From assembly GCA_964453265.1 (NCBI GenBank), contig CAYVNU010000002.1:40619-104618 (forward strand): a stretch of 64,000 bases of DNA, read 5' to 3'. The stretch's first letter is position 1. Each line of letters begins with the position of its first letter. Shown in pieces: positions 940 to 62,036 of the stretch. The translations under genes were made by a program, and so were the position numbers. The notes beneath the pieces are model-generated. The model did no database searches and was not told the DNA's origin. It saw only the letters and a list, made by a program, of their open reading frames with translations. This DNA is from an uncultured Candidatus Saccharibacteria bacterium (GTDB lineage Bacteria > Patescibacteriota > Doudnabacteria > UBA920).

Positions 940-986
940 CCCCTCCTTCGCTAAAGCTTCGGCGGGCAAAGCAAGGCTTCGGCGGA
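940..986. repeat. Dispersed GC-rich repeat, copy R1 (cctccttcgctaaagcttcggcgg...)
   Basis: Shares cctccttcg(c/t)taaagcttcggcgg with copy R4, and gcttcggcgg (reverse-complemented) with copy R5. Confidence 0.45.
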
Positions 987-1020
987 TTATTCGCTATAAT
1001 TATTAAAATAATGAGAATAA

Positions 1021-1055
1021 AAAATCCCGCCCCCTTTACGGGGACGGGGTTTTTA
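1021..1055 (-). terminator. Rho-independent terminator downstream of the cold-shock gene
   Basis: GC-rich hairpin cccgccccctttacggggacggg, flanked by an A-run on one side and a T-run on the other. Confidence 0.5.
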
Positions 1056-1064
1056 AAAGCAAAA

Positions 1065-1262
1065 CTATGCTCTTTGTACGTTAACTGCGTTAGGACCCTT
1101 AGGAGATTCTTCAACCTCAAAAGATACGGTGTCGCCTTCGTTAAGTTCTTCGAAAGTTACACCGACTAAGGACTTACTGTGAAAAAATAAGTCTTTGTCT
1201 TGTCCAGCTACAGTAATAAAACCAAAACCTTTATCGGTTTTCTTTTTGATTACACCAGTCAT
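1065..1262 (-). CDS. cspA: Cold-shock protein (CspA family, S1-like cold-shock domain)
   Basis: 65 aa containing KGFGFI and the FFH motif, which are RNP1/RNP2-like. Confidence 0.9.
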   Translation of the reverse strand: MTGVIKKKTDKGFGFITVAGQDKDLFFHSKSLVGVTFEELNEGDTVSFEVEESPKGPNAVNVQRA

Positions 1263-1319
1263 GGAAGTTTAAATTTAGTTATTTAAGTGCAAAATTTGCA
1301 CCGCCTGTTAAGGCAAAGT

Positions 1320-1395
1320 GTGTACCCCGTTAGAAGTCCGGTGTCTTTAAGACACCGACAGACGCCTTTTGGGCGTCTTACTTCTAACCGGGTGA
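1320..1395 (-). promoter_or_regulatory. Structured leader upstream of csp: a three-way junction with a long closing stem and two internal hairpins
   Basis: Closing stem ccgttagaagt / acttctaacgg. It encloses hairpins cggtgtctttaagacaccg and gacgccttttgggcgtc. The element lies 65-130 nt upstream of the csp ATG. Confidence 0.3.
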
Positions 1396-2879: not shown

Positions 2880-3060
2880 AATATTATTTTAATAATTGAT
2901 TTATTAAAAATAGCAAAATAATTAATTTTAGACAATGAAAGCTTCTAAATAAAAAAGGGCAGCGGGGTTACTGCCCAAAAATTCCGCATTGCAGTCCGCC
3001 TTCTAAGGTTCGCCTGCAATGGAGTTCTGGGTGCAAACTGCACACCAAGTAGTTGGTGCG

Positions 3061-3249
3061 TCAGCCAGGCACCCAAATTAAAATTCCCCTGTATATTTCT
3101 AACTCCTCGCATACCGGGCACCCATCGCCCGGTTTATACCCATATGGTATTTCGCCGGACGGAACCGGCTTGCCATATGTTGCAAAAAGAACATCCTCCT
3201 CTTCAAGCCACTGCTGGAAAACCAGCAGGGTGGCTTCATTATGAGTCAT
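3061..3249 (-). CDS. Hypothetical small protein (62 aa)
   Basis: The ORF sits in a local GC-rich patch and a plus-strand ORF overlaps it. It has a CPVC pair. This is a weak call. Confidence 0.3.
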   Translation of the reverse strand: MTHNEATLLVFQQWLEEEDVLFATYGKPVPSGEIPYGYKPGDGCPVCEELEIYRGILIWVPG

Positions 3250-3287
3250 TTAGATATGTTAGCATATTTTATGAAATGTTTTAAAAT

Positions 3288-3318
3288 AAAAAAAACGCCA
3301 CTTTTGTAGGCGTTTTTT
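3288..3318 (-). terminator. Terminator hairpin
   Basis: aaaacgccacttttgtaggcgtttt, flanked by A and T runs. Confidence 0.5.
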
Positions 3319-3319
3319 A

Positions 3320-6692: not shown

Positions 6693-6732
6693 TCTCCTCC
6701 GTCATTGCGAGTATAGCCAAAACAATCTATAT
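6693..6732. repeat. Dispersed GC-rich repeat, copy R2 (ctcctccgtcattgcgag...caatctatat)
   Basis: Shares cgtcattgcgag and caatctatat with R5, and ctcctcc(g/t)tc with R4. Confidence 0.45.
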
Positions 6733-16854: not shown

Positions 16855-17175
16855 ATGTCCTCAATCAAAATTGACGAAGTAAATTTTAAAACTGAAGTAT
16901 TAGATGAAACTTTACCTGTTTTAGTCGATTTTTGGGCTGTTTGGTGCGGACCCTGTAAAATAATTGGCCCAATAATAGAAGAACTTTCTTCTGAATACGC
17001 TGGAAAAATGAAATTTGGCAAAGTAAATGTAGACGAAAATAACTCACTTGCTTCCCAATTTGGCGTTATGAGCATACCAACCCTTAAAATCTTTAAAAAT
17101 GGCAAAGTTGTCGGCGAAATGATCGGAGCAGCACCTAAACAGGTTTTAGAAGACGAAATTAAGAAGCATATTTAA
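16855..17175 (+). CDS. trxA: Thioredoxin
   Basis: The WCGPC active site (WAVWCGPCK) and a length of 106 aa. Confidence 0.9.
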   Translation: MSSIKIDEVNFKTEVLDETLPVLVDFWAVWCGPCKIIGPIIEELSSEYAGKMKFGKVNVDENNSLASQFGVMSIPTLKIFKNGKVVGEMIGAAPKQVLEDEIKKHI

Positions 17176-17252
17176 TTAAATACTTGGATCAATCGAGAAA
17201 GTTTAAAACTTTTGAGACTGGTAACTAAATTGGTTGGTGTTAAAGTACAATT

Positions 17253-17280
17253 AAGCCTTGAATAAAGGCTTTTTTGTTTG
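17253..17280 (+). terminator. Rho-independent terminator of trxA
   Basis: aagccttgaataaaggctt followed by tttttg. Confidence 0.6.
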
Positions 17281-17339
17281 TTTTTCATTAACCAATTTCG
17301 TGTATGAAATCAGTATGTAAATATTGAAATAAGAACCAT

Positions 17340-17692
17340 CCAGATCCGCCAAAGTCCCGACTGGTCGGGACGACGGTGGAAGAGTCGCTGGCGCTCTGAG
17401 TGGCTAAACTGATTAATTACCAACCTAAAAGGTTACCAGTCGCAAACTTTTTTACCAATATACTCTAATAACCTCCTCCCCGGGTTCCGATAACTCCACC
17501 CGGGGTTTCCAACACGGCGCCCGCGATGATTATCAATCGCTAAGAGCTTACCTGCTGGCGGGCGTAACTTGCTTTCCAAAACGGGGATGGTTTTGGAAAG
17601 AACAGAGCCGTTCATCCCCGGACGGCGGTGAAGATCTGTTTTAAGCTTATGGCTTCAATGCTGGCCGCCTGTCCGGGGTTTTCTGGCAGACT
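17340..17692 (+). ncRNA. GC-rich structured region and candidate ncRNA; class unresolved (tmRNA, SRP RNA and 6S-like RNA not excluded)
   Basis: A roughly 350-nt island of about 50% GC sits in an AT-rich genome. It contains nested hairpins: gtcccgac/gtcgggac, ccccgggt/acccgggg, ctttccaaaac/gttttggaaag and cggggatg/catccccg. A strong terminator hairpin follows. The only ORF in the region is a spurious antisense one. Confidence 0.3.
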
Positions 17693-17728
17693 AAAAAGAG
17701 CCTGTAATTACAGGCTCTTTTGTATTTT
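17693..17728. terminator. Bidirectional terminator hairpin
   Basis: aaaaa-gagcctgtaattacaggctc-ttttgtatttt. Confidence 0.55.
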
Positions 17729-17773
17729 ATTAGCAACCAATTTATGCACCAGTCACCAGTCTCGTACATTTTC

Positions 17774-19555
17774 TCAAACGATTTTATGAACCTGACCTGG
17801 CTTTATTACTGTTTTAGTGTTTACAGGATTTATGATTTTATTTATATTGTCAGCATCGTGGATATCTGCATTTTTTTGGTTTCCAATACTTTTATTAAGA
17901 TCTCCTAACTGACGCTGTTTTTTTTCTCTTTCTAAATTAGCTATTGTATTCCAGATTGGATTTTCTTTTTTTCCTTCAGTTTTTTTTGTATTATTTTTTT
18001 TCTCAGAAAATTTAGGATTTTGATGAATTTTTGTTTTAAAATCTTTTTTTGATTTAACAACTTCTTCGTGGGGCTTACTCGAAAAAGTTTGTGTTATAGG
18101 TTTTACAGCTATTTCCCGACTGCTTGTATCAGGAGTTTTTACCAAAGGTTTTTCAGGCAAGGCTGTAATTTGTTCTATGTTATTCAAATTTAAATCAGTA
18201 TTTTCATTTTCCAAATCCTCAGAGCTATCTTTTAAAATAGCTGTCTCCTCATGAAATTCCGCACCCATCCAACGAGAAATTTTTTCTTCTACATCTAAAA
18301 CAGGGTTAGTATACCTCTCTCTGGAAACTTTTATAACTTTGTCAAAATTACCGGAATAATATTCGGGGTTTGGAGATAAGGTAATGGCAGAAAACGGTTC
18401 ACTAGCAACGCCATTTATCATTAATTTTAAAATAATTTGATATTTAGGCAGGTTTACCATGTCGTTTGGCGTAAAAATCGGTTCAAATTCAGTTTCTAAA
18501 AACTCCGCGTCAGCAGCACCAATCCTAAACAACACAATTGTTCCCACGTTTCCAAAAATAGCGTCTCTAACTTTTGTACTACGATCTTGTTCTAACTGAG
18601 CAATGTACTGATGCCCGACAATCAAATTTAAGCGGTATTTTCTGGCTTCACTTAAAATTGTCGCGAAACTTTCAGTGGCAAAATTTTGAAATTCATCAAC
18701 GTACAAATAAAAATCTTTTCTTTCGTGCTCAGGAATGTCTGTTCTTGACATGGCTGCAAGTTGAAGTTTTGTTACCACCATTGCCCCCAAAAGGGCGCTG
18801 TTGTCTTCGCCTACTTTACCTTTAGACAAATCCATAATTAAGATTTTGCGCTTATCCATTATTTCGCGCAAATCTATTGTGCTTTTCGGCTGGCCAACAA
18901 TATTTCTAATAATGCCGCTAGATAAAAATTGTCCTACTTTATTTTGAATAGGGGCAATAGCTTCTGTTCTATACTTCTCATTATAATTAGCAAATTCATC
19001 GACCCAGAAAGCCTTAACCATAGGGTCTTTAATATTATCAACAATTTTCTTTCTATACTTTTTATCAACATACATTCTGGTAATACCTAAAAGAGTATTG
19101 CCAGGGCTATCTAGCAAAGCCAAAATTGTATTATTTAAAATATATTCCATTCTCGCTGACCATAAGTTTGCCCAAATTTTAGTAAATACACCCATAAGCC
19201 CGCTAGCTACCAAATGTTTATATTTAGCGTCAACAGCCTCTAAAATATTAAATGCTACGGGAAATTCCAAATCAGCTGGGTTAAAATATATTACGTCATT
19301 AACACGGTTAGATGGGATGGAATTTAATATTCTTTGAACTGAGTCTCCGTGCGGGTCTAAAAACGCCACACCATTGCCGTTACGGATATCCTGAATGACC
19401 ATATTTTCCATTAATGTGGTTTTACCCATTCCCGTTTTACCAATTAAGTACATGTGCCTTCTTCGATCATCGGTTTTAATACCAAAAGCCACATCTTTAT
19501 TTCGGAAGTTGGTTTTAGCAAAAACAGTAATTTTGTTTTCTTGATTATTTTCCAT
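17774..19555 (-). CDS. AAA-like ATPase of the TraD/VirD4 coupling-protein (AAA_10/TraG-D_C) family
   Basis: N-terminal Walker A (LIGKTGMGKTT) followed by FLDPHGD, a Walker B (LYVDEFQNF), and a Lys/Asn-rich tail of about 130 aa. Confidence 0.65.
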   Translation of the reverse strand: MENNQENKITVFAKTNFRNKDVAFGIKTDDRRRHMYLIGKTGMGKTTLMENMVIQDIRNGNGVAFLDPHGDSVQRILNSIPSNRVNDVIYFNPADLEFPVAFNILEAVDAKYKHLVASGLMGVFTKIWANLWSARMEYILNNTILALLDSPGNTLLGITRMYVDKKYRKKIVDNIKDPMVKAFWVDEFANYNEKYRTEAIAPIQNKVGQFLSSGIIRNIVGQPKSTIDLREIMDKRKILIMDLSKGKVGEDNSALLGAMVVTKLQLAAMSRTDIPEHERKDFYLYVDEFQNFATESFATILSEARKYRLNLIVGHQYIAQLEQDRSTKVRDAIFGNVGTIVLFRIGAADAEFLETEFEPIFTPNDMVNLPKYQIILKLMINGVASEPFSAITLSPNPEYYSGNFDKVIKVSRERYTNPVLDVEEKISRWMGAEFHEETAILKDSSEDLENENTDLNLNNIEQITALPEKPLVKTPDTSSREIAVKPITQTFSSKPHEEVVKSKKDFKTKIHQNPKFSEKKNNTKKTEGKKENPIWNTIANLEREKKQRQLGDLNKSIGNQKNADIHDADNINKIINPVNTKTVIKPGQVHKIV

Positions 19556-34526: not shown

Positions 34527-34617
34527 TGTAGTTTTGCGCTGGTGACCAGGCTGTCATTCCAAACGTGGTGAGAAATCCCTTATAATTTAACGTTCGATCA
34601 TTGTTAGATAATCAAAA

Positions 34618-34682: not shown

Positions 34683-34859
34683 CAAAACTCATCAAAACAA
34701 AACCACCTTCCGCAAAGAAAGGTGGTTAGGAAAGTTTTGTAACAATGCTAAACCCCAGACTTTGCGAAAGAAGGCAAAGTCCACCAAGCTGATACTGTAT
34801 ATTTTATAACTGCTTTACTCATAAAAATATGATAAACCATCGACTGGCCTATGTCAATA

Positions 34860-34873
34860 GCGTACTAGTACGC
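34860..34873. promoter_or_regulatory. Perfect 14-bp palindrome gcgtactagtacgc, a TrpR-family operator-like CTAG site upstream of yerC
   Basis: Perfect palindrome located 105 bp upstream of the TrpR-like gene. A related CTAG-n4-CTAG site (ctagcgtactag) lies at 33881-33892. Confidence 0.4.
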
Positions 34874-34977
34874 TGAAACACATAAATAATTAAGTTTATT
34901 TGAATTATCCACATCTTTATTTACAAAATCTTTTACTAATGTTACCGTACAAGTAACTCTACTAATAACAAATATTT

Positions 34978-35268
34978 ATGAAATACAAGCATGAGTACGG
35001 TGTAGAATTAGAAAAGTTAATAGAAAAAATAGGTCAAACCAAAGACAATAAACTAATGCGTGAGTTTTTGTTTGATTTACTCTCCCCTGCTGAGTACCGA
35101 GAAGTGGCTGTTAGATGGCAAATTGTCAAAATGCTTAACAAAAACATTCCACACCGGGAAATATCTAAAACACTAAAAGTTGGTTTAGCTACAATAAACC
35201 GAGGCGCGAGAGAATTGGTCAATAAAAAAGGCGGCTTTAAAACTGTATTAAATAAATTTTTTAAATAA
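34978..35268 (+). CDS. yerC: TrpR-like DNA-binding protein (YerC/YecD family)
   Basis: 96 aa. The stretch REVAVRWQIVKML...ISKTLKVGLATINRGAREL matches the TrpR/YerC helix-turn-helix. Confidence 0.75.
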   Translation: MKYKHEYGVELEKLIEKIGQTKDNKLMREFLFDLLSPAEYREVAVRWQIVKMLNKNIPHREISKTLKVGLATINRGARELVNKKGGFKTVLNKFFK

Positions 35269-35742: not shown

Positions 35743-36957
35743 TCACACTAATTCTTTTAAATCAGAGTCAGAAAAACCTATTAATTCCGGCTCAATGTGG
35801 ATATTTATCCCGAGCTTTTCTAGGGCGGTTTTTTTAACTTGCTTAGCCAGATTTAAGACATCGCTTGCGGTAGCTTTGCCGGTTTGGTTAATTATAACCA
35901 AAGGTTGATTTTTATTAATAGCCGCCCCACCGAAAGCAAAATCTTTCAATCCGCAAATATCAAGCAAAAATGCAGTTGGTACTTTTACGCTATTGGCGTC
36001 AGTAAATTTTTTCTGTTCAAGTTTTTCAGCAGTTTCTTGGCCAAATTCTTTTTGCAACCTATTTTTTAAAATTAAAAATTCTTCTTGATTTAAAATTAAA
36101 TTTTTAAAAAATGAGCCGGCGTTACCTTTTTTAGCTTCTGTGGGAAACGGAAATTTTTTATTTCTTATTTCTATAATTGCCTGACGAATTTCTAACAGGC
36201 TTGGCTTTATATTGGCAAATTTTTGAGCTAAATCTCGGTAATTTAAAATCGGCAGAGGGTTTTTTGAAAGTTTAAAGACAATTTCAAAAATAATATACCT
36301 GCCTTTTTCAGTGCTATTAAATATGCTCTTTCGATACGAAAATCCGCAATCTGTTTTATTTAGACTTAATATTTGATGGGTTTGTTTGTCAAAAACCGTT
36401 ACAGATTCTATGAGATTTTTAGCTTCCTGTCCGTAAGCCCCGACATTTTGCACGGCAATAGCACCTGTGCTCCCGGGAATATGCGATAAATTTTCCATTC
36501 CCCACCAATTATTTTTTACCGCAAAATCAACCACACTGTCCCAATTTTCACCTGAAGCCACTTTAAGAAAAATAAAATTTTTATCCGATCCGAGTCCGCC
36601 AATTGGCGGAGAGGAATCGATTTTTTGTACATGCTGATTTATATTAAGGGATCCCTCCTCCTTCGTTAAAGCTTCGGCGGACAAGTCGGCCGCACTCGGG
36701 ATGGTTAAAACATGAAAACTTTCGATTACTTCAATCCCCTTATTTACAACCCTAATAACCAACCCGCTAAATCCACTGTCAGCTATTAATAAATTACTAC
36801 CCCCGCCCAAAATAAACACGGGTAAGTTTTTTGCTTGAGCAAATTCAAAAGCCGTTAAAGCATCAAACTGGTCTTTAACCTCGCAAAAATATTTGGCCGG
36901 CCCGCCTATTTTAAAAGTGGTGTAAGGTGCTAATTGTATATTTTCTAAAACTTTCAT
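35743..36957 (-). CDS. murB: UDP-N-acetylenolpyruvoylglucosamine reductase MurB, carrying an in-frame repeat-derived insertion
   Basis: N-terminal FAD-binding motifs (YTTFKIGGPAKYF, ILGGGSNLL). The 404-aa length exceeds typical MurB, and the dispersed GC-rich repeat at 36645-36705 lies in-frame inside it. Confidence 0.85.
   Translation of the reverse strand: MKVLENIQLAPYTTFKIGGPAKYFCEVKDQFDALTAFEFAQAKNLPVFILGGGSNLLIADSGFSGLVIRVVNKGIEVIESFHVLTIPSAADLSAEALTKEEGSLNINQHVQKIDSSPPIGGLGSDKNFIFLKVASGENWDSVVDFAVKNNWWGMENLSHIPGSTGAIAVQNVGAYGQEAKNLIESVTVFDKQTHQILSLNKTDCGFSYRKSIFNSTEKGRYIIFEIVFKLSKNPLPILNYRDLAQKFANIKPSLLEIRQAIIEIRNKKFPFPTEAKKGNAGSFFKNLILNQEEFLILKNRLQKEFGQETAEKLEQKKFTDANSVKVPTAFLLDICGLKDFAFGGAAINKNQPLVIINQTGKATASDVLNLAKQVKKTALEKLGINIHIEPELIGFSDSDLKELV
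36645..36705. repeat. Dispersed GC-rich repeat, copy R4, in-frame inside murB
   Basis: ttaagggatccctcctccttcgttaaagcttcggcggacaagtcggccgcactcgggatgg. In the murB frame it encodes TIPSAADLSAEALTKEEGSLN. Confidence 0.5.
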
Positions 36958-37390: not shown

Positions 37391-37409
37391 ATTACTCAAC
37401 TTCCATCAA

Positions 37410-37520
37410 TTCATAAGACAAACGATTAAAATCCCCCACTGCCATAACGACTACCACGTCCCCTTCCTTGGTTTTTTTAAAATATCCAAGGATTCTTTTT
37501 TATTGCCAACAAGATGCATA
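37410..37520 (-). pseudogene. Remnant copy of the murC 3' end (last ~40 codons plus stop), roughly 85% identical to 38876-38983
   Basis: The minus-strand translation is LVGNKKESLDILKKTKEGDVVVVMAVGDFNRLSYELMEVE*. The murC C-terminus is ...LVHNKQEALDILKKEAKEGDVVVVMAVGDFNRLSYELNENL*. The copy is not in frame with the upstream ORF. Confidence 0.6.
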
Positions 37521-37536: not shown

Positions 37537-37980
37537 TTATGCTGGGAAGTTTATAAAAATTACTTTAGGCCTTATCCCTAAAACCCTAGCTATCATTAAA
37601 CGTGTATTTCCAGCTACTTTGTGATACCTTCCATTCATCTTAAAAATAATTGGGGCTGCCATGGGAACTCCTTTCTTCATATCAGCCAATTTATTCTCCC
37701 AGCTTCTCTTATTCAACGCAGCAATTTCTTCAAGCTTTTCAACTTCACCCTCTGAAAGATCTTGGAAAGAATCTGTATTTTCTAGGACAGACCATATTTC
37801 ATCCGATAAAGTTTCGAGCTGCGCATTGTCAAACTGATTTTTAAAGGCCCACATTATTTGCTTGTATAATTCTTTATCACCTCGTGAAAACTCTTTAGCT
37901 GTACGATCAATTTCACCAAACTCATATTCTAGATTTGGCTTCTCCCATTGTTCGGGCTTTTGTTTTTCAAATTCTCTCAT
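37537..37980 (-). CDS. Hypothetical protein with a C-terminal ParB/Srx-like motif
   Basis: 147 aa. The C-terminal RYHKVAGNTRLMIARVLGIRPKVIFI resembles the ParB N-terminal domain pattern (Y.iiaGerRlrAa..lG...pviv). This is a weak call. Confidence 0.45.
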   Translation of the reverse strand: MREFEKQKPEQWEKPNLEYEFGEIDRTAKEFSRGDKELYKQIMWAFKNQFDNAQLETLSDEIWSVLENTDSFQDLSEGEVEKLEEIAALNKRSWENKLADMKKGVPMAAPIIFKMNGRYHKVAGNTRLMIARVLGIRPKVIFINFPA

Positions 37981-38028: not shown

Positions 38029-38856
38029 TTAATTGCCATATAATTTAATAGCCTCATTAAGACCAAAAGCCATTTTCGTTAGTTTACCCATTTCTAAAGC
38101 TGAATCTTTCAATTTTTTTGGATTTGACTCAACTCTATCCCAAATACTACTTTTGGCGGGAAATATGTTATAAATTCTCTTAGAGTCAAACGAATTTAAA
38201 ATTGTCTTTGCACACTCATACTGTTCAAATTCATTATACACAATTAAAATATCTGTGGCTGCGGTTTTTAAAACATGCGTAACATGTTCAATGGTTTGAG
38301 AGTCCCTGGCAATAGGGTCTTTAAATTTTTCTGTACCTATCTTAACATACCCAGGAGCAAAAAATGGCGCGGAAGCTGCTGCTTTAAAAAGTTTTACATA
38401 GTCTATTTCTTTAAAATTGTGAACTTCTAAATATTCGTCTAGATTTTTTGTTAAATTATTTAAACGCAAATATAGTTTAGTTGACTGATCTAGTATATTA
38501 CTTACATTCACATTTTTTTGCTTTTGCAAAACACTAATTAAATAATCTGAATCAATTAACTTCCAAAATCTAAAAGGATTAAAAAACTTTTTTGAACATA
38601 AATCCTCATAATACACACTAACATTTTTTAAACCATCACCGGACAAAAAACTTGAAGCATTAAAGAACCCTGATGAAATTGTATATATAGAGTCAAAAGC
38701 TTGCCCAAAGCCCATTTCAAGCAAAGCTGCCATAGCTCCTGCGCTTCTAACCCCACTCATAAATCCGCCAAAATTTACTAAGGCAATCGTTAGACCATCT
38801 TTAGTAGGAACTTTTTTATTTTTTCTTGCAAAAATATGTCCGAGTACTGGGTGCAT
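38029..38856 (-). CDS. Patatin-like phospholipase paralogue; the active-site motifs are partly degenerate
   Basis: The glycine-rich LVNFGGFMSGVRSAG stretch sits where the oxyanion motif falls. TISSG replaces GxSxG. No clear DGG motif is present. Confidence 0.55.
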   Translation of the reverse strand: MHPVLGHIFARKNKKVPTKDGLTIALVNFGGFMSGVRSAGAMAALLEMGFGQAFDSIYTISSGFFNASSFLSGDGLKNVSVYYEDLCSKKFFNPFRFWKLIDSDYLISVLQKQKNVNVSNILDQSTKLYLRLNNLTKNLDEYLEVHNFKEIDYVKLFKAAASAPFFAPGYVKIGTEKFKDPIARDSQTIEHVTHVLKTAATDILIVYNEFEQYECAKTILNSFDSKRIYNIFPAKSSIWDRVESNPKKLKDSALEMGKLTKMAFGLNEAIKLYGN

Positions 38857-40347
38857 TTATAAATTTTCGTTTAGTTCATAACTTAGTCTGTTAAAGTCCC
38901 CCACTGCCATAACAACCACCACATCCCCTTCCTTGGCTTCTTTTTTTAAAATATCCAAGGCTTCTTGTTTGTTATGAACAAGTCGAACTTGATTTTTGTT
39001 ACTTGATTCTTGTTTCTTAATTTCTTTAATTACATCGGAAGAAGATATAGTGGCTTCTGATATTTTCTCGCGCGCGGGATAGATTTCGGAAATTAAAATT
39101 TCATCGGCAGCATCAAAAGCTTTAACTAAGTCAGGCAAAGTGGCTTTTGTCCGACTAAATGTATGCGGCTCAAAAACGGCCCACAACTTAGGTGTTAGGT
39201 TAGAGCTGTTAGGTTTTAGATTAGAAAAATACTTAAGACGAGCTGCTTCTAGTGTTTCGCGCACAGCGGTTGGGTGGTGAGCGTAATCGTCTATAATAGT
39301 CACGCCATTTTTTACACCCACAACTTCAAAGCGCCTCTTAAGGCCGGTAAAACTAATTAAGTCCAATAAAAACTGCTGCGGCTGAAAACCCAGTGCTCTG
39401 AGTGTAGCCACAGAAGCCAAAACATTGTAAACATTCAATTTTCCGGGCAGCTGGATTTTATACTCTTCAGTTTGACCAAGCAGCTGAGCGTTTAAATTTT
39501 TTGAAAATTTATTTATTACTTCAAAGTTTGTATATTGCCCGTATTGAATATTTTCAACTTTAAAATCAGCGTTATTATCTACTCCAAAACTTACTGAGGA
39601 CAGATTAGATTCGTGAACCAATCTAACTAAATTAGAATTATCCGCGTTGTAAACAATCAATCCATCTTCAGGCATTGCCGCAATTAACTGTCTAAATTCA
39701 TCTTCAAGCTCCTCTAAACTAGAAAAAATATCCGGGTGGTCGTATTCCAAGTTTGTTAGAACCAAAATGTCGGGTTTATAAAAATGAAATTTCGGGGTCG
39801 GATCGTCAAACTGTTCTTTGTATTCATCGCCCTCAAAAACAAAATAATTACCGTCGCCGGAATAAAAGTTTAAATTATAATTTTTTAAAACACCACCGGC
39901 CATAAAAGAACTATTATCCAAATTCTTCAGCAAATGACCAAGTAATGCTGTTGTTGTGGATTTCCCGTGAGTACCGGCAACAACAATTCTCAATTTGTCT
40001 TTACTTAAAAAATACAAATATTCAGCCAGGCCACAGCGAGTCAAATTGTTTTTTAAAATATAATCAACTTCCGGGTTTGTAAAACTTTCACCAGCAGATA
40101 TAACATACAAATCCGCGTGAGAGTTTTTAACCTGCTCTGAATCATAACCAACAAAATATTTTATTTGGTTTTTATCTAAAACATCTTTTGCCGGAGAATA
40201 AACACTTTTACTGTCGCTACCTAAAACTTCAAAACCCGCTTCTGAGGCTAAGTTAGCCGCTGCAGACATAGCAATACCGCCTATGCCCACAAAATATATT
40301 TTGGCGCCGGGAACAAGAATATTTTCTAAATCTAAGTTTGTATCCAT
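38857..40347 (-). CDS. murC: UDP-N-acetylmuramate--L-alanine ligase MurC (an Mpl-type ligase is not excluded)
   Basis: FVGIGGIAMS N-terminus, the P-loop VAGTHGKSTTT, and NLEYDHPDIF. Confidence 0.85.
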   Translation of the reverse strand: MDTNLDLENILVPGAKIYFVGIGGIAMSAAANLASEAGFEVLGSDSKSVYSPAKDVLDKNQIKYFVGYDSEQVKNSHADLYVISAGESFTNPEVDYILKNNLTRCGLAEYLYFLSKDKLRIVVAGTHGKSTTTALLGHLLKNLDNSSFMAGGVLKNYNLNFYSGDGNYFVFEGDEYKEQFDDPTPKFHFYKPDILVLTNLEYDHPDIFSSLEELEDEFRQLIAAMPEDGLIVYNADNSNLVRLVHESNLSSVSFGVDNNADFKVENIQYGQYTNFEVINKFSKNLNAQLLGQTEEYKIQLPGKLNVYNVLASVATLRALGFQPQQFLLDLISFTGLKRRFEVVGVKNGVTIIDDYAHHPTAVRETLEAARLKYFSNLKPNSSNLTPKLWAVFEPHTFSRTKATLPDLVKAFDAADEILISEIYPAREKISEATISSSDVIKEIKKQESSNKNQVRLVHNKQEALDILKKEAKEGDVVVVMAVGDFNRLSYELNENL

Positions 40348-47375: not shown

Positions 47376-47768
47376 GTTCTTAACAAACCGAATAATCGCT
47401 TTCCCGATTCATATCGGGAGGGAGGAAAGTCCGAACACTTATTTGATAGCCTCTTAAGAGTTATCAAAATTGGTAACGGGTAACGCCCGTATGGAGCAAC
47501 CCGCCGTCGCGTAAAGCTATGGCGAGCCAAGCCACGAGATGCGAACAGAAACGATTAAATCCGAAAGGGTTTAATATCCCCAAAGGGTAACCTTGGGATG
47601 TTCCGGTAGTAACACCGGAGTGAAACGGCTAAATTCTTACCTGAGTGCAAGGCCAAATTTGGTAGGCTGCTTGATCCCGGCAGTAATGTCTGGGGCAGAT
47701 AGATGATTATTTTTTCCGCCGTAAGGCGGGATGTTAAACAGAATTCGGCTTATGAGTTTGTTAAGAGC
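47376..47768 (+). ncRNA. rnpB: RNase P RNA, bacterial type A
   Basis: Contains the conserved blocks GGGAGGGAGGAAAGTCCGAACAC, GGGTAACGCCCGT...CAACCCGCCG, ACAGAAACG, GGAGTGAAACGG and GAGTGCAAGGCCAAATTTGGTAGGCTGCTTGATCCCGG...ACAGAATTCGGCTTATGAG. P1 pairs cttaacaaac with gtttgttaag. A TTGACA -35 hexamer lies at 47341. Confidence 0.85.
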
Positions 47769-50627: not shown

Positions 50628-51188
50628 TTAACGCTTCGCCCATTGTGGGCTTCTGCGGGCTCTTTTTAAGCCTGGTTTCTTTCTTTCTTTCTTTCTGTCG
50701 TCTCTGGTTAAGAGGCCATTTTTCTTTAAAACTCTTCTAACTTCTTCGGACATTTTGCCTAAAGCGGTTGAAATACCATGACTCAAAGCTCCGGCCTGGG
50801 AATGTTGCCCACCGCCATTTATATGCGCTGTAAAATAATAATCACCCTTAAGACCCGTTAATTCCAATGGCTTTAAAATTTCATGCTGATGGTATGTATA
50901 ACCAAAGTACTTATTAAAAGCTACCTTGTTAACAATATTTTCTTCTTGCCCGGAAAATAGCCTAACGTTTGCCACAGCGGTTTTTCTTCTGCCAGTAGCA
51001 AAAACATACCTGCCTTTAGCTACAACCGGTTTTTCAGAAACTTTATGATGAACCGGATGCTCTACTACTTCCTGTTTTGCTTCCAAAACTGGTTCATGGA
51101 CCAAAGCTTTCTTTTTTACCGAAACTGCTCTAGGCTTTTTAGGAGCCTTGCTTGTTGCTGATTTAGTTGTAGATTCTTTTGTAACCAT
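50628..51188 (-). CDS. rpsI: 30S ribosomal protein S9 with a Lys-rich N-terminal extension of about 55 aa
   Basis: C-terminal GGGQHSQAGALSHGISTAL...RRSPQWAKR. Confidence 0.9.
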   Translation of the reverse strand: MVTKESTTKSATSKAPKKPRAVSVKKKALVHEPVLEAKQEVVEHPVHHKVSEKPVVAKGRYVFATGRRKTAVANVRLFSGQEENIVNKVAFNKYFGYTYHQHEILKPLELTGLKGDYYFTAHINGGGQHSQAGALSHGISTALGKMSEEVRRVLKKNGLLTRDDRKKERKKPGLKRARRSPQWAKR

Positions 51189-53754: not shown

Positions 53755-54216
53755 TTAAACGCGTCGTGGTTTCTTTGGTCTTACTCCACCGTGTGGAGTT
53801 GGTGTCTGGTCTTTAATACTTAAAACTGAAAGTCCAGATCCTTGTAAGGCTCTAATAGCAGATTCTCTTCCTGATCCAATACCTTTTATAAAAACATCAA
53901 CTTCATTTAATCCGCGTTCTTTTAGCTTAGCTAAAACATCTTCCATAACTCTCTGGCCGGCGTATGGTGTAGATTTCTTTGAACCTTTAAAACCAATTTT
54001 CCCGGCACTACCCCAAATTAAAACATTGCCGGTTAAATCGGTGACTGAAATAATAGTATTATTATAAGTTGAATTAACGAAAATTTTACCTTTTGTAACT
54101 TTAGCCTTGGACTTCTTTTTCTTTGAGGATTTAATTTTAGCAACAGCAGCTAAAACAGCAGAAGTTTCTTCGGCAGGTTTTTCAGTTATTTCGCTATTTT
54201 GTAATTCGTCTGGCAT
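53755..54216 (-). CDS. rpsK: 30S ribosomal protein S11 with an N-terminal extension
   Basis: IFVNSTYNNTIISVTD...PHGGVRPKKPRRV. Confidence 0.9.
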   Translation of the reverse strand: MPDELQNSEITEKPAEETSAVLAAVAKIKSSKKKKSKAKVTKGKIFVNSTYNNTIISVTDLTGNVLIWGSAGKIGFKGSKKSTPYAGQRVMEDVLAKLKERGLNEVDVFIKGIGSGRESAIRALQGSGLSVLSIKDQTPTPHGGVRPKKPRRV

Positions 54217-54242: not shown

Positions 54243-54632
54243 TTAGGTCTTTTCAGATGCATTTTTTCTACCGCTTCCAGCAGTCTTTCTAACATTACCT
54301 CTTCTGGTTCTAGAATTAGTTTTAGTTCTCTGACCTCTGACCGGTAAACCTTTTATATGCCTAATGCCTCTATAACTCTGAATTTCCTTCATTCTTTTAA
54401 TATTAAGTAGAACCTGCTGTCTCAATTCACCTTCTACTTTAAAACTTTTTTCAATAAATTCTCGGATTTTATTTAACTCAGCTTCAGACAAATCTTTAGT
54501 GCGCTTATTTGGGTCAATGTTCGTAGCTGCCAAAATTTTCTTTGACAAGGTTAAGCCTACGCCATAAATATAAGGCAATGCCGCTTCAATTCTCTTTTCA
54601 TTTGGAATATTAATACCTGCGATACGAGCCAT
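54243..54632 (-). CDS. rpsM: 30S ribosomal protein S13
   Basis: [26 protein letters not shown]. Confidence 0.9.
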
Positions 54633-54725
54633 GTTATATTTGATAATTTATAATTAATAACTAATAACTTAAAAACCTTAAGGCTTAGAAATTACCAATT
54701 AATAATTATTAATTGGGTTTAAAAA

Positions 54726-58190: not shown

Positions 58191-58203
58191 TTGTTTTTTT
58201 ATT

Positions 58204-58225
58204 CCTCTCCTTTTTAAAGGAGAGG
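58204..58225. other. SD-containing hairpin cctctccttttt/aaaggagagg between the DUF559 stop and the pgi start
   Basis: Perfect 9-bp stem that includes AAGGAGAGG. Confidence 0.4.
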
Positions 58226-58235
58226 TTAGGTGAGG

Positions 58236-58612
58236 TTATTTTGAAAATTCTTCTGATATTAATTTTTTCATAATTACTTGTAAAACCCCGTCAATATTTT
58301 CCATAACGTCTTTATTTGTAAATCGCAAAACTTTAAAATTTAATTCTTCAATATAACCCTGTCTCTGTTTATCTTTAACTACAACTTCTGAGCCTACATA
58401 ATGACTATCACCATCAACTTCTATAACTAATTTTTTTCAGTGCAACAAAAGTCTACAGAATAAGGTCCGATGCCGTATTGGCGACGAAATTTAAAACCTA
58501 ACAATTGGCGATTTCTTAGTTTTGACCAAAGAAGCCTTTCCGTAACAGGTTCGTCTTTTCTTAGTTTTCTTCTTATTTCTAAAGTGTCGGTAGGGTTATA
58601 AATATAAGCCAT
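58236..58612 (-). pseudogene. DUF559 (Vsr-like PD-(D/E)xK endonuclease domain) gene disrupted by a 1-nt frameshift in an A7/T7 homopolymer near 58430
   Basis: Frame 1 reads MAYIYNPTDTLEIRRKLRKDEPVTERLLWSKLRNRQLLGFKFRRQYGIGPYSVDFCCTEKN*. Adding one A gives ...TEKKLVIEVDGDSHYVGSEVVVKDKQRQGYIEELNFKVLRFTNKDVMENIDGVLQVIMKKLISEEFSK*, which is the canonical DUF559 VIE(V/L)DG core. Confidence 0.75.
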
Positions 58613-58665
58613 AATAACCTCCCTTAATCCCTCCTTTAAAAGGAGGGAAATAGACCCAGAACTAA

Positions 58666-60594
58666 CTACTTAATCACCGCTTTTATTCTGCGCACACCAG
58701 CGCTACTAGCTTCTTCTTTTTGTATTTTAAAAGTGCCAATCACTCCGGTATGTTCAACGTGTGGGCCGCCGCAAAATTCTCTTGAAACAACCTCGCCTGA
58801 TGATTCATCATAAACCGTATAAATAGACACAGTATCTGCATACTTTTCGCCGAACACGCCAATAGCGCCTAGACTTCTTGCTTCTTCTAAGCTCATAGTT
58901 TCGCGCTTTACTTTCAAATCACTAGCTATCCAGTCGTTAACTAAAGCTTCCACTGCGGCAATTTCTTCCGGGGTCATTTTTTTGTCATGAGTAAAATCAA
59001 ACCTAGTTCTTTCTTCTGTTATATTACTCCCCTTTTGCCACACGTTGTCACCTAAAACCTGACGCAGCGCTGCATTCATAAGGTGAGTTGCTGTATGAAG
59101 GCGCACGATTTTGTCTGAATGTGATGCCAAACCGCCTTTAAATTGCCCAGCACTAGCTGTGCGTGATAGCTCCTGATGTTTTTTAAATTCTGTTTCAAAT
59201 TCTTTATGATCAATTTTTTGCCCCATACTTTCGGCTAACTCTTTGGTTAATTCCCAAGGGAAGCCATATGTTTGATACAAATCAAAAGCATCTTTACCCG
59301 ATATTCGGGTCATTTGCCTGCCTACCGGCAAGGCAGAGACATTATTCGCAGATTCAGATCCCGACATTAGTTTTTCAAACTCTTTCAAGCCCTTGTCTAA
59401 AGTTGTTTCAAATTTTTTTTGCTCTTCTAGAATTACAGCGAAAATTTGTTCGGAATTTTCTACAAGTTCCGGGTAAGACTGGGCGTAAATAGCAATAACT
59501 TTACCAACCAAAGCTTCTAGCCAATGTCCTTGAAAATTAAGTAGCTTGGCCATAACCATTGTCCTTCTAAGCAGTCTTCGCAAAAAATACCCACGGTCTT
59601 TGTTAGAAGGCGCAACACCGTCGCTCACCATAAAAGTACCTGCTCTTATGTGGTCAGCTATAATTCTAACTTTTTTTACTTCATCACCCGAAAGTATTTC
59701 ATTACCTCTGCCTAAAGACTCGTACATTACGTCAAACAAAGGTTTAAAAACATCTGTATCAAAAACCGCCTGCTGTCCAACTGCAGCCGCCAAAATTCTT
59801 TCAAGCCCTCCACCAAAATCCACATTTTGTTGTTTTAACTTTTCAAACCCATTTTCAGTTTTAACGTATTCCATAAATACGTTATTGCCAATTTCCACAA
59901 ACCTACCACAGTCGCAATTAACATGACAAACGCTATTTTTAAATTCCGATTTTTCATGAATTTGCAAATGCGCCCCGTAGTCCCAAAACATTTCACTGTC
60001 CGGGCCACCGGGTTCGCCTACCGGCATATTTTTTGTAACACCCGCTCTTGACCACCAATTTTTTTCTTCAGGATAATAAAAAATCCTACCGCCCTGCATT
60101 CCATCACGCTCAGGAAAATCAATGATGCGCGAATCAATCCCTTTTGCTTCAAACAAGCCCTGCCAAATTTTGGCTGACTCATCATCTCGCGGGATTTTTA
60201 TGTCTTCTTTTCCCCTAAAAACAGTAACGTACAAATTTTTTGGATCAAGCCCCACTTCTTTGGTTAAGAACTCAAACATCCAGGGAATTTGTTCTTTTTT
60301 AAAGTAGTCACCTAAAGACCAATTGCCGAGCATTTCAAAAAACGTGATATGACGATTATCGCCAACTTCTTCTATATCTTGAGAACGAAAGCATTTTTGT
60401 GAATCTACAATTCTTGTACCTTTGGGGTGCTCCGCGCCAAGTAAGTAAGGTACCATAGGCTGCATTCCACTTCCCGTAAAAAGTGTTGTTGCATCATTCT
60501 CCGGCACCAAAGATGCCGAAGGGATAATGGTGTGTCCTTTGGATTTAAAAAATTCAAGATATTTAGAACGTAGTTCTTGTGCGGTAATTTTCAT
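58666..60594 (-). CDS. alaS: Alanine--tRNA ligase, short form lacking the C-terminal C-Ala domain
   Basis: Class II core (FTGSGMQP, HxxxH editing motif HTATHLMNAALRQVLG). 642 aa, against about 870 in canonical AlaRS. Confidence 0.9.
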   Translation of the reverse strand: MKITAQELRSKYLEFFKSKGHTIIPSASLVPENDATTLFTGSGMQPMVPYLLGAEHPKGTRIVDSQKCFRSQDIEEVGDNRHITFFEMLGNWSLGDYFKKEQIPWMFEFLTKEVGLDPKNLYVTVFRGKEDIKIPRDDESAKIWQGLFEAKGIDSRIIDFPERDGMQGGRIFYYPEEKNWWSRAGVTKNMPVGEPGGPDSEMFWDYGAHLQIHEKSEFKNSVCHVNCDCGRFVEIGNNVFMEYVKTENGFEKLKQQNVDFGGGLERILAAAVGQQAVFDTDVFKPLFDVMYESLGRGNEILSGDEVKKVRIIADHIRAGTFMVSDGVAPSNKDRGYFLRRLLRRTMVMAKLLNFQGHWLEALVGKVIAIYAQSYPELVENSEQIFAVILEEQKKFETTLDKGLKEFEKLMSGSESANNVSALPVGRQMTRISGKDAFDLYQTYGFPWELTKELAESMGQKIDHKEFETEFKKHQELSRTASAGQFKGGLASHSDKIVRLHTATHLMNAALRQVLGDNVWQKGSNITEERTRFDFTHDKKMTPEEIAAVEALVNDWIASDLKVKRETMSLEEARSLGAIGVFGEKYADTVSIYTVYDESSGEVVSREFCGGPHVEHTGVIGTFKIQKEEASSAGVRRIKAVIK

Positions 60595-60670
60595 ATGAGT
60601 AAGTAGTGGGTAGCGAATAGTAGGTAGCCAAACTTGTATGGCTAGATTACTACTTACTACCTACTATTAG

Positions 60671-61918
60671 CTATCTAACTATTTCTTCTAACGCTTTTTC
60701 CATTTGAGCGTCTTTGTTATTTTTAGCGTCTTCTTCTGTAATGGAAACTTTTACATCCGGTTCAAGTCCGTCTTTATTTAAATTCTTACCGTTTGGAGTT
60801 ATCCATTTGGCAATAGTTACTTTAACCGCGCTACCGTCTCTTAAATCTACCAATTCTTGCACACTGCCTTTACCAAAAGATTTTTCTCCGACTAATTTTG
60901 CAATTTTATAATCATGCAAAGCTCCGGATAAAATTTCCGCTGCCGAAGCACTGCCGCCGTTTATTAAAACTACAGTTGGCATATTCGCAAAACGGCTGGC
61001 TCCTTCTGCTTTGTAAACGGTGTTTTCGCCCGTGCTTTTTGCTTCAGTTACTACAGTCGTGCCACTCTTAAGCCAGTTAGAAGCCACAGCCACAGCAGTT
61101 TGCAAATAACCGCCCGGGTCATTGCGCAAATCTAAAACCAAACCTTCCGCGTTGTGGTTTAAAGCCTCGGTAACTGCCTGGTTAAAAAGCCCTTCTGTGT
61201 CATCGCCGAACTTAGACAGTGTAATAACCGCAATATTTTTTTTCTTACCATCTTTTTCAACAGTCTTAAATTCCCACTTTACACTTTTAACTTTTATAAC
61301 ATCTCGGATAATTTTTACATCAAAAGGCTTGTCTTTACCTTTTCTATAAATAGTCAAATTAACCGGAGTGCCTTTTTGACCGCGAATTTTTCCCACGGTT
61401 TCTTCCACTGACCAATTCTCGGTAGATTGCCCATCTACTTTAACAATAATGTCCTGAGCTTTTAACCCGGCTTTTTGCGCCGGACTTTCATCTAATGGAG
61501 CCACAATCACAATTAAACCGTCTTTTTTAGAAATTTCAGCGCCAATACCGTCAAAGCTGCCTTTTAAATCGGTTTTAAAGCTTTGCAAAGCTTTAGGTTC
61601 AAAAAAATCCGTGTAAGGGTCACCGGTAGATGCTACTGCGCCGCGAATCGCCCCGTATAAAACTTTTTGAGGGTTAACTGGCTTATCTATATATTTGGTG
61701 TCTAAAATATTTATGGCATCCCATAGTAAATTGTAGTCAACAACTTTAGGCTGATCTTGCTTGCTAATTACCTTAAAAGTTTTTGGTTCAAAAACCAAAC
61801 CTTTTTTCCCGGCTGCAAAACCCACTCTGTAGCTAATAGCCAATAAAGCAATAAAAAGTACAGCTATTCCGATTTTTTTCTGATTTTTCTTTGCAATTTC
61901 CTGATAATTTGTTTCCAT
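60671..61918 (-). CDS. ctpA: Carboxyl-terminal processing protease (S41 family, CtpA-like)
   Basis: N-terminal TM helix, a PDZ domain, and the S41 catalytic region GGSASAAEILSGAL. Confidence 0.85.
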   Translation of the reverse strand: METNYQEIAKKNQKKIGIAVLFIALLAISYRVGFAAGKKGLVFEPKTFKVISKQDQPKVVDYNLLWDAINILDTKYIDKPVNPQKVLYGAIRGAVASTGDPYTDFFEPKALQSFKTDLKGSFDGIGAEISKKDGLIVIVAPLDESPAQKAGLKAQDIIVKVDGQSTENWSVEETVGKIRGQKGTPVNLTIYRKGKDKPFDVKIIRDVIKVKSVKWEFKTVEKDGKKKNIAVITLSKFGDDTEGLFNQAVTEALNHNAEGLVLDLRNDPGGYLQTAVAVASNWLKSGTTVVTEAKSTGENTVYKAEGASRFANMPTVVLINGGSASAAEILSGALHDYKIAKLVGEKSFGKGSVQELVDLRDGSAVKVTIAKWITPNGKNLNKDGLEPDVKVSITEEDAKNNKDAQMEKALEEIVR

Positions 61919-61997
61919 ATTAAAAAATAGTTTATGAGGTAATATTTAATAATTTGAGCTTAGATTTTATTTAAACAAAAATAACTAGTATTTCAAT

Positions 61998-62036
61998 CGT
62001 CATTGCGAGAAGTGCATCCGCCGAAGCAATCTATAT
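61998..62036. repeat. Dispersed GC-rich repeat, copy R5 (cgtcattgcgagaagtgcatccgccgaagcaatctatat)
   Basis: Shares both end motifs with R2 and contains ccgccgaagc, the reverse complement of the R1/R4 core. Confidence 0.45.

Follow-up and report, generated by a model that had tools for sequence, protein, structure and literature searches.

Short hairpin repeats, probably of the CGTC-tagged REP superfamily, nested in one another and within genes of a candidate phyla radiation bacterium

The DNA analysed here, 64 kb of contig CAYVNU010000002.1 (hereafter the window), belongs to Candidatus Doudnabacteria, within the candidate phyla radiation (CPR; Patescibacteria), and the window carries short GC-rich elements at several dispersed sites. 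This placement comes from homologs of the MurB and AlaRS encoded in it. An earlier note on this DNA had described them as five or more copies of one family of elements, comparable to repetitive extragenic palindromic (REP) sequences or miniature inverted-repeat transposable elements (MITEs). We find instead that the sites are members of at least three families of hairpin repeat, inserted in either orientation and nested in one another, and that a sixth site belongs with them. We consider it probable (about 0.72) that they are decayed, mutually nested and non-autonomous repeats of the CGTC/TGTC-tagged REP superfamily, behaving like the palindromic elements of Rickettsia (Rickettsia palindromic elements, RPEs). 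The units are discrete, independent of orientation and shared with phages and distant phyla, and their turnover by gain and loss outpaces the divergence of the sequence around them. In spacers, the preferred place is immediately downstream of a terminator or gene; other units sit in or beside the loops of older ones, giving a mosaic of shared modules.

Results

Recurrence of the modules

The window has a GC content of 35%, nearly all of its genes lie on the minus strand, and the gene set is a housekeeping one (lepA, murJ, ftsW, murD-like, mraY-like, secDF, secA, murB, murC, murG, alaS and the alpha ribosomal operon, among others). All five sites of the earlier note, here S1 to S5, hold the strings quoted for them. 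Counting both strands, TTAAGGGATCCCTCC occurs twice (34619 and 36644), as do CGTCATTGCGAG (6700 and 61998), AAGCTTCGGCGG (954 and 36669) and CAATCTATAT (6723 and 62027); GCTTCGGCGG is found three times on the plus strand (956, 976 and 36671) and once on the minus strand (reverse complement at 62018). In dinucleotide shuffles, 0.04 copies of GCTTCGGCGG are expected against the four observed, and 0.00 copies of the 12-mer CGTCATTGCGAG and the 15-mer TTAAGGGATCCCTCC, observed twice each. An unbiased count over the whole window, with no patterns chosen post hoc, gave 12 recurring GC-rich 13-mers (shuffle mean 1.4, maximum 6) and 10 recurring GC-rich 14-mers (0.8 in shuffles), the modules of the earlier note among them. 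Recurrence beyond chance, as proposed there, thus holds for the longer modules; CGGGATG (7 matches) and CCTCC(G/T)TC (2–3 matches) are too short to be informative alone, and some other repeated 12-mers in the window are due to chance or paralogy. The description of the sites as GC-rich fits S1 and S4 best (59–64%); S3 and S5 reach 48–49% and S2 just 40%. An independent Logan assembly of run SRR12487046 contains S3 and S4 letter for letter, so they are not an assembly artefact of the window. In total, about 10 units of at least three families lie within the 64 kb.

Plan and families of the hairpins

The units follow a common plan. After an unpaired head, (C/T)GTC, comes an outer stem, then purine-rich internal loops (GA/GAA) and an inner stem-loop that varies, and the unit ends in a short tail. 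The outer stems are of the types ATTGC/GCAAT, ATCCC/GGGAT and CGCC/GG(A)GG. The first is seen on the plus strand in S2 and S5 (head CGTC, then ATTGC-GAG...GAA-GCAAT and the tail CTATAT) and the second on the minus strand in S3 and S4 (head (T)GTC, then ATCCC-GA(G)...GA-GGGAT and the tail CCCTTAA); within each pair head and tail are common and the interiors differ. The third belongs to module A, the string common to S1 and S4, which reads on its head strand (T/C)GTC followed by CGCC-GAA-GC-TTTA-GC-GAA-GGAGG. Module A is a TGTC-tagged hairpin of 24 nt that is present in S1, S4 and the additional site S6. The palindrome CCTGCCTRCCGGYAGGCAGG, of which a degenerate copy lies in the alaS gene of the window, represents a fourth type.

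The head is CGTC in S2, S5 and a 39-nt unit within S6, and TGTC in S3 and in the module A of S4; it is degenerate in the outer unit of S4 (AACC) and in the module A of S1 (TGCC). Stems begin with A-T in S2, S3, S4 and S5, and with CG in module A and the 39-nt unit. Tails are CTA in S2 and S5 and CCC in S3 and S4. The outer stems of the window copies measure 4–5 bp and the interiors 11–47 nt, their length being partly due to other units nested inside. The claim that modules occur in both orientations is borne out by head strands of units on both DNA strands: CCGCCGAAGC, which the earlier note listed in S5 as a reverse-complement module, is on the head strand in S5 as well as in module A, so the elements were inserted in opposite orientations. 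Relative to the gene strand the orientation is mixed, with about three units sense and about three antisense.

The contexts are those described earlier, namely spacers (S2 and S5), the vicinity of terminators (S1 and S3) and the inside of a gene (S4, in frame in murB). S5 (61998–62036, plus strand; CGTC / ATTGC-GAG-AAGTGCATCCGCC-GAA-GCAAT / CTATAT), in the spacer between the genes for a family-2 glycosyltransferase (GT2) and an S41 protease, is the window's best-preserved ATTGC-type CGTC unit. S2 (6700–6732, plus strand; CGTC / ATTGCGAG-TATAGCCAAAA-CAAT / CTATAT), in the murJ-lepA spacer, is a degenerate unit of the same type with its closing stem down to ATTG/CAAT and its CGTC head kept. Both lie 78–116 nt from the flanking genes. 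S3 (34619–34684, minus strand; TGTC / ATCCCGA-CCGACGA-(GCCAATTTTA ATGAAA TAAAATTGGC)-GAGGAGCG-GAGGGAT / CCCTTAA) is a long form of the ATCCC-type hairpin and the sole well-preserved palindrome among the window copies; on the gene strand it lies 17 nt downstream of a terminator-like hairpin (34727–34701). S1 (929–987, minus strand; ATCCGCCGAAGC / CTTGCTT TGCC-CGCCGAAGC-TTTA-GCGAAGGAGG / GGCGTAGGTGGAG) contains one full module-A hairpin (942–968) and lies 39 nt downstream, on the gene strand, of another terminator-like hairpin (1048–1026), with the TTG start of a GDSL-lipase gene 11 nt further on. S6 (33892–33961, minus strand), absent from the earlier list, turned up in a relaxed scan of the window and is a module A (CCCTCCTTCACTAAAGCT...TCGGCGGGCAGGC) split by the 39-nt hairpin (33905–33943, plus strand; CTCGTC / CGAC-AAA-GTCCGCC-TCA-GGCGGAC-GAA-GTTG GA), in which the CGTC head precedes an outer stem of 4 bp and an inner stem of 7 bp, with an internal loop rich in purines between the two. 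No sigma-70 consensus promoter attributable to the elements was found.

Gain, loss and nesting among relatives

The syntenic relative L002 is 85% identical to the window in nucleotide sequence over 10.7 kb, and its MurB is 92% identical outside the murB insert described below. It has neither S3 nor this insert, and in the alignment all indels of at least 6 nt fall on GC-rich elements, except for one 1.47-kb block of two genes. A second relative, L253, also lacks S3. The GT2-S41 protease spacer measures 233 nt with S5 in the window against 78 nt in the syntenic locus L343, the AlaRS of which is 80% identical to that of the window, and the two spacers are not alignable. No S2-like sequence was found in the murJ-lepA spacer of 15 LepA-locus relatives, one of which (L270) has a canonical TGTC pair there instead. 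For S1, no syntenic GTPase-GDSL locus was found among the relatives.

Two comparisons of filled and empty sites reveal insertion of one unit into another. At the place of S4, L253 has a compact hairpin, ACCATCCCGAGTGCGGCCGAGGGATCCCTTAA, which represents the empty site ACCATCCCGAGTGCGGCC / GAGGGATCCCTTAA. The outer hairpin of S4 in the window (36644–36705, minus strand; ACC / ATCCCGAG-TGCGGCC-(module A)-GAGGGAT / CCCTTAA) is this compact hairpin with exactly 30 nt added in the loop (GACTTGTCCGCCGAAGCTTTAACGAAGGAG, 36658–36687, minus strand); the added segment is a module A reading TGTC / CGCC-GAA-GC-TTTA-AC-GAA-GGAGG. At the position of S6, L253 has an uninterrupted module A, CCCTCCTTCGTTAAAGCTTCGGCGGGCAGGC, and the module A of the window is split just past its loop by the 39-nt CGTC-headed hairpin. 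The junction CCGA / CT(T/C)GTCCG...GGA, with an ambiguity of 2 nt, is common to the two nested insertions (30 and 39 nt). As a general target site it is a lead and not a rule, since the flanks of other module-A copies differ. In S1, the module A at 942–968 appears from its sequence to sit in the apex of a degenerate module A (969–987 and 929–941), which brings the nested cases to three (S4, S6 and S1), two of them with this junction and that of S1 inferred. Nesting explains the overlapping modules seen in the earlier note, and it is largely through nesting that a single family in five copies gives way to a mosaic of at least three families.

In-frame inserts in murB and alaS

S4 lies in frame within murB and reads as TIPSAADLSAEALTKEEGSLN. 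It is part of a larger insert of 147 nt (36577–36723, minus strand) that adds 49 codons, amino acids 79–127, with the sequence ESFHVLTIPSAADLSAEALTKEEGSLNINQHVQKIDSSPPIGGLGSDKN. A second GC-rich piece of this insert, TCCGCCAATTGGCGGACTCGGATCGG (36585–36610, minus strand), contains the palindrome CCGCCAATTGGCGG. The ends of the insert are inverted, the right end ACTCGGATCGG being a degenerate partner of the left end CCATCCCGAGT; in the murB insert of a relative (L256) they form a clean 15-nt inverted repeat, TACCATCCCGACCGA...TCGCTCGGGATGGTA. MurB of the window is 404 aa long, compared with typically 351–364 aa in relatives. The insert begins after the motif GIEVI (alignment A1) and splits the match to Pfam FAD_binding_4 into two separate stretches; relative to Escherichia coli MurB (1MBB), window residues 79–128 correspond to chain residues 74–78. 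The closest MurB homolog (P0001, from L002) has just a 6-residue remnant at this site. Other MurBs of Doudnabacteria have inserts of varied length after GIEVI, with the ends (V/I/L)PS... and ...S(L/V)GM, which are the two arms of the inverted repeat, and three MurBs (P0017, P0085 and P0086) have GC-type inserts at other sites. In a profile search of genome contigs with the MurB alignment, the matches listed were almost only from Bacteroidota and Proteobacteria, with one CPR locus (L173) among them.

The insert in alaS (59305–59364, minus strand), absent from the earlier note, is also in frame and adds about 20 codons, SGSESANNVSALPVGRQMTR. It holds the degenerate copy of the palindrome CCTGCCTRCCGGYAGGCAGG mentioned above (CTGCCTTGCCGGTAGGCAG, 59318–59336). 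It occupies a hypervariable insertion hot-spot between EFxKL and ITGxDAF (alignment A2) that is empty in P0127, P0135, P0137 and P0150 and holds about 20 residues in the window and up to about 80 in other homologs. The peptides VIPSEALR, ESRDP and SARNDN at this hot-spot are translated repeat units. Similar decoration is seen in relatives: in L257, a glycosyltransferase family 4 (GT4) protein is longer by 26 residues through an inverted ATTGC pair, residues that the window ortholog does not have, and rsmH of L290 contains a canonical TGTC pair, in frame. We infer that the inserts in MurB and AlaRS occupy surface loops where hydrophilic peptide is tolerated. Such in-frame decoration of genes is the hallmark of RPEs.

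Conservation of the fold

Among the window copies, S3 folds with -13.4 kcal/mol under standard DNA parameters (z -3.7), as good a value being reached by 0 of 200 shuffles. For module A, 82.5% of the proposed helix is paired over 14 distinct copies; sliding the partner gives at most 58%. Three of its pairs show compensatory changes (U-A/C-G; G-C/U-A/A-U; A-U/U-A/U-G), and the covariation score of 0.164, compared with 0.106 in shuffles, was reached by none of 500. Two copies of the core CGAGGAGTGCATCCGACG in L257 differ in their closing stems, which are ATTGC/GCAAT and ATCTC/GAGAT. From this exchange of stems and the covariation in module A, the fold matters for the family. A search of Rfam 15 returned no match at any site, at the gathering score or at E<=1.

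The same units in phages and other bacteria

With its head of 12 nt and tail of 9 nt, S5 matches the pattern CGTCATTGCGAG-N(4-34)-GAAGCAATC, which occurs in at least 120 IMG/VR loci. The modal IMG/VR units of ATTGC type are CGTCATTGCGAGCGAAGCGAAGCAATC(CAG) and a 33-mer, often as inverted pairs. A Novosphingobium resinovorum megaplasmid has at least 40 places with the modal unit at 100% identity, and the unit is also found in N. aromaticivorans, Methylobacterium, Methylosinus, the cyanobacterium Aulosira and Helicobacter canis prophages. The ATCCC type is present in 50 IMG/VR loci, including long forms of 50–52 nt that are built like S3, with head, extended hairpin and a GAGGGATCCC tail, and the palindrome CCTGCCTRCCGGYAGGCAGG in 48 IMG/VR loci and in the murB insert of L256. 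Four IMG/VR loci, ranging in GC content from 34 to 65%, contain module A. Among them is L341, which has five module-A copies and, with its P22-type portal and RuvC, is a genuine phage contig. L038, with a lysozyme, is also a genuine phage contig and has several copies of the hairpin units.

In other CPR loci, 18 canonical units (stem of 8–9 bp, loop of 4–5 nt and CCA tail) were found in 894 kb, where 5.3 were expected. L290 has four of them, and others are in L270, L326 and L327. Canonical copies in IMG/VR and CPR mostly end in CCAG. A generic detector of GTC followed by an AT-stem hairpin proved useless in AT-rich DNA (10 hits against 14 expected). The earlier note had mentioned cattgcgag-type repeats as common in CPR genomes. 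Such repeats do occur there, as the inverted pair in the Doudnabacteria GT4 gene and the canonical TGTC-type units of other CPR loci attest, and they are not CPR-specific, the same sequences being present in Novosphingobium, Methylobacterium, Methylosinus, a cyanobacterium, Helicobacter prophages and many IMG/VR contigs.

Discussion

Relationship to known repeats

CGTC-tagged REPs were defined by an unpaired CGTC head (or TGTC, CCTC), a stem of 8–9 bp starting with A-T, a loop of 4–5 nt and a CCA-like tail, with a total length of 20–40 bp (Di Nocera, De Gregorio and Rocco, 2013, BMC Genomics 14:522; PMC3733652). Inverted dimers are frequent, intragenic copies occasional and a dedicated transposase is not known; the superfamily takes in Neisseria dRS3 and Rickettsia RPE-4 and RPE-6, and N. 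aromaticivorans is listed as a CGTC-2 species (PMC3733652). The window units share with these REPs the unpaired CGTC/TGTC head directly before the stem, the start of the stem with A-T in S2 to S5, the short tail, the occurrence in either orientation and mostly in intergenic positions or downstream of coding sequence, the occasional in-frame copies and the lack of an associated transposase. The head and tail of S2 and S5 are letter for letter those of alphaproteobacterial units. In contrast to the published REPs, the window copies lack the canonical perfect stem of 8–9 bp with a loop of 4–5 nt, their tails are CTA or CCC instead of CCA, their copy number is low and they form no inverted dimers in the window; the stems of module A and the 39-nt unit start with C-G and not A-T; and the CPR host lies outside the 5 phyla reported (PMC3733652). 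A full-text literature search with the repeat strings returned primers only, full-text search found no publication that connects repeats of REP or RPE type with CPR genomes, and the main text of two recent papers on REPs makes no mention of CPR.

Likeness to RPEs lies in the behaviour of in-frame insertion, the link in sequence being only through RPE-4 and RPE-6 as CGTC REPs (PMC3733652). As in RPEs, palindromic repeats of about 100–150 nt sit in frame in unrelated housekeeping genes of a small, AT-rich genome of host-dependent life; the insert is translated, probably at a surface-loop position, and its presence differs between relatives. The murB insert, with 147 nt and inverted ends, conforms to this description. 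The CPR inserts differ in being composites of small units and not one long element, and the lineage is unrelated. RPE-1 and its relatives, in-frame palindromic repeats in Rickettsia genes, were reportedly described by Ogata and colleagues in 2000.

REPINs are doublets of GTAG-tagged REPs mobilised by a single-copy Y1 transposase (RAYT). The window units resemble them as short hairpins with a conserved unpaired tetranucleotide beside the stem, in a likely recognition as single-stranded DNA and in the inverted doublets of the relatives L257 and L290. They differ in the heads, which are CGTC/TGTC and not GTAG, and in that window-type sequences cross phyla, whereas REPINs are specific to a lineage, in which they co-evolve with the RAYT. 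No Y1_Tnp or RAYT gene is present among the approximately 50 open reading frames (ORFs) of the window. The REP pairs of L290 were considered as flanks of a RAYT gene and rejected, the first pair lying within rsmH. As to MITEs and Correia-like elements, the units are likewise non-autonomous, short and dispersed, and the murB insert of L256 has 15-nt inverted ends; inverted ends in the MITE sense are seen only for the composite murB insert. Unlike MITEs, the units have no target-site duplication and no parent insertion sequence was found, and with 24–66 nt they are far below typical MITE length. Of the original REP/MITE comparison we thus retain the REP part, on account of the published CGTC/TGTC heads and tails and the presence or absence of units between relatives, and consider the MITE part unsupported. 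None of the results favours the recombination hot-spots or protein-binding sites that the earlier note also suggested.

Possible mode of spread

By analogy with REP/RAYT and IS200/IS605, the units most likely spread as hairpins in single-stranded DNA through an enzyme acting in trans that would read the (C/T)GTC tag beside the stem. A candidate would be an HUH/Y1-type enzyme or another hairpin-specific recombinase, encoded elsewhere in the genome or brought in by phages, in which the same units occur. Most of the window copies would be relics that are no longer good hairpins and are probably without a function of their own.

Several results weigh against an origin as REP-superfamily repeats. 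S1, S2, S4 and S5 fold no better than shuffles (z near 0), and S2 has no stable fold (z +0.4). Standard DNA parameters credit no G.A pairs, the GA/GAA internal loops thus go uncredited, and the window copies may be somewhat better structured than the z-scores indicate. A strict scan for the canonical unit found none in the window compared with 1.0 in shuffles, and the copy number per family is only 2–3 in 64 kb. No transposase of any kind is present among the approximately 50 window ORFs scanned, so that the argument for mobility rests on gain and loss and not on an enzyme. The junctions of S3, S5 and the outer murB insert are not clean between filled and empty sites. No consistent target site or duplication emerged from these comparisons, and there are no target-site duplications at any junction beyond the 2-nt ambiguity. 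Finally, the GIEVI site of murB is occupied in distant lineages, which would also be compatible with one old insertion followed by many losses.

Alternative explanations

One alternative, to which we give little credence, is that the elements are functional cis-acting signals selected in place, such as hairpins that stabilise or terminate transcripts or sequester ribosome-binding sites, or sites for protein binding, and that they are alike through shared function. The placement of S1 and S3 directly downstream of terminator-like hairpins and of S2 and S5 in 5´/3´ untranslated spacers would fit such a role. So would the AAGGAGG end of module A, which in L341 lies 7 nt before an ATG in one copy, and the agreement of head strand and coding strand in 4 of the 5 copies in that phage. 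The covariation of module-A pairs points to selection for the fold somewhere, and E. coli REPs are reported to be regulators in 3´ untranslated regions. In contrast, the elements are not conserved at orthologous positions in relatives, their orientation is mixed, and copies lie within coding sequences and within one another, where the later insertion destroys the older hairpin; for these reasons a regulatory role in place is unlikely. The lack of an Rfam family even at relaxed E-value also speaks against it. Module A as a hairpin sequestering the ribosome-binding site was rejected because the spacing from GGAGG to the start codon is inconsistent (2, 7, 15 or 24 nt, or no start at all).

It is similarly improbable that other copies or phage DNA served as templates from which the tracts were copied in recombination, gene conversion or repair, or that hairpin-prone sequence grew and shrank by replication slippage in place, with no dedicated enzyme. 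The missing transposase, both for CGTC REPs in general and in the window, would then need no explanation; genuine phage contigs do carry several copies; the ragged junctions would be expected; and the pairs S2/S5 and S3/S4, with common ends and different interiors, are what recombination between copies would give. Against this stand the nested insertions: each is a discrete unit (30 or 39 nt) with head, stem and loop complete, and the two share the left junction CCGA / CT(T/C)GTCCG and the end GGA, a pattern that looks site- and unit-specific. Identical units of 24–30 nt in genomes of 34–65% GC from several phyla would also be hard to obtain by local slippage. A resemblance due to chance, to the composition of GC islands or to misassembly is hardly credible. 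The uninformative short modules and the 12-mers repeated by chance or paralogy would suit it, and it is refuted by the shuffle tests on single modules and on 13- and 14-mers, by the same strings in hundreds of unrelated public contigs and by the independent assembly.

Activity and implications

An extension of the REP-superfamily reading, which we regard as rather unlikely, is that the tagged hairpins are still active in CPR and phages and prefer the single-stranded apices of hairpins already in place as targets, and that they also enter loops of essential enzymes and possibly structured RNA genes. For structured RNA, one example would be a gene in L327 that resembles tRNA-Val, and another, with less certainty, would lie in the P12 region of the RNase P RNA of the window.

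The gene in L327 (14724–14808) is tRNA-Val(UAC)-like and directly follows a normal tRNA-Val(CAC); it has a 22-nt palindrome, ACCTGCCTGCCGGCAGGCAGGT, in the D-loop and receives no ARAGORN call, and a further tRNA-like remnant with other palindromes lies next to it. The class A RNase P RNA of the window (47380–47768, plus strand) scores 95.5 bits against an Rfam gathering score of 100 and is missed by a default scan. Its P10-P12 region measures 58 nt, compared with 23 in the Rfam model, and includes a hairpin, CGCCGTCGCGTAAAGCTATGGCG (47502–47524), of module-A-like build (CGCC, a 3-nt internal loop, GC and a TAAA loop), which may be an inserted unit.

As REP-superfamily repeats, the elements would extend the CGTC-tagged REP and RPE phenomenon to a new host group, the CPR. 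They would account for GC-rich peptides such as VIPSEA.., SARNDN, LPAGRQ and AEALAKEG in CPR "hypothetical proteins" and for length variation in conserved enzymes (351–404 aa in MurB and 621–704 aa in AlaRS). The inserts can also mislead gene and RNA callers, as with the RNase P RNA under the Rfam threshold and the tRNA-like gene missed by ARAGORN. How near-identical hairpins of 24–30 nt come to be spread across phyla and phages with no known transposase is a question that the small genomes of CPR, with about 700–1000 genes, could make tractable. If the units are still active, profiling of copy number against gene content in CPR could identify the enzyme that mobilises CGTC REPs, missing since 2013, or point to delivery by phages. 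The interest of the system rests on the in-frame decoration of essential CPR enzymes, the nesting and this chance of finding the mover of CGTC REPs.

Other features of the window and its relatives

The 1.47-kb block that is absent from the syntenic L002 (37401–38982) contains a second patatin-like gene (38029–38856) and an ORF of 147 aa without Pfam match (37537–37980), and it is bounded by diverged direct repeats (37401–37513 and 38866–38982) that are 78–86% identical. Another block of about 715 nt (33793–34545) holds a 148-aa ORF, also without Pfam match (34080–34526), and is flanked by a 38-nt direct repeat with the core CCAGCGCAAAA.(T/C)ACA..GC.GG, which takes in the ORF start; the arrangement is likewise duplicated in L253, where the ORF is a different one of 123 aa. 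The spacer after alaS (58191–58665) is the remnant of a gene for a DUF559/Vsr-like endonuclease that is intact in L343 (11950–12384). In both genomes this locus is bracketed by inverted, hairpin-containing repeats, CCCTCCTTTTAAAGGAGGGATTAAGGGAGG ... CCTCACCTAACCTCTCCTTTAAAAAGGAGAGG, and it looks like a small mobile cassette of its own.

Three non-coding blocks of elevated GC content (40–44%) and 340–670 nt, at 2880–3319, 17106–17773 and 33491–33830, contain several strong hairpins and have no Rfam, tRNA or tmRNA match. One includes GTCCCGActggTCGGGAC followed by GACG (17354–17371 for the former). These blocks may be unrecognised structured RNAs or clusters of repeat units. Beside the block of 668 nt, in an otherwise housekeeping region, stands a homolog of TraG/VirD4-type coupling proteins (17774–19555; TrwB_AAD_bind and TraG-D_C).

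The Trp-repressor gene (34978–35268, plus strand) is preceded at about 100 nt by an operator-like perfect palindrome, AGCGTACTAGTACGCT (34859–34874), and the related CTAGTACGCTAGTGC (33878–33892) lies 1 kb away. In L256, the Trp-repressor gene adjoins trpEGDC; no trp genes follow the copy in the window. A perfect palindrome of 36 nt (62858–62893), with 16-bp arms in ACTTTACAAAGTTCAC ggcc GTGAACTTTGTAAAGT, lies inside the GT2 coding sequence (62152–63111). The ribosomal proteins S9 (50628–51188) and S11 (53755–54216) are extended at the N terminus, ahead of their Pfam domains, by about 65 and 42 residues. Ahead of rpsM, an alpha-operon ribosome-binding-site leader (RF00140, 39.2 bits) was found at 54600–54697 on the minus strand, the only Rfam match above gathering score in the window.

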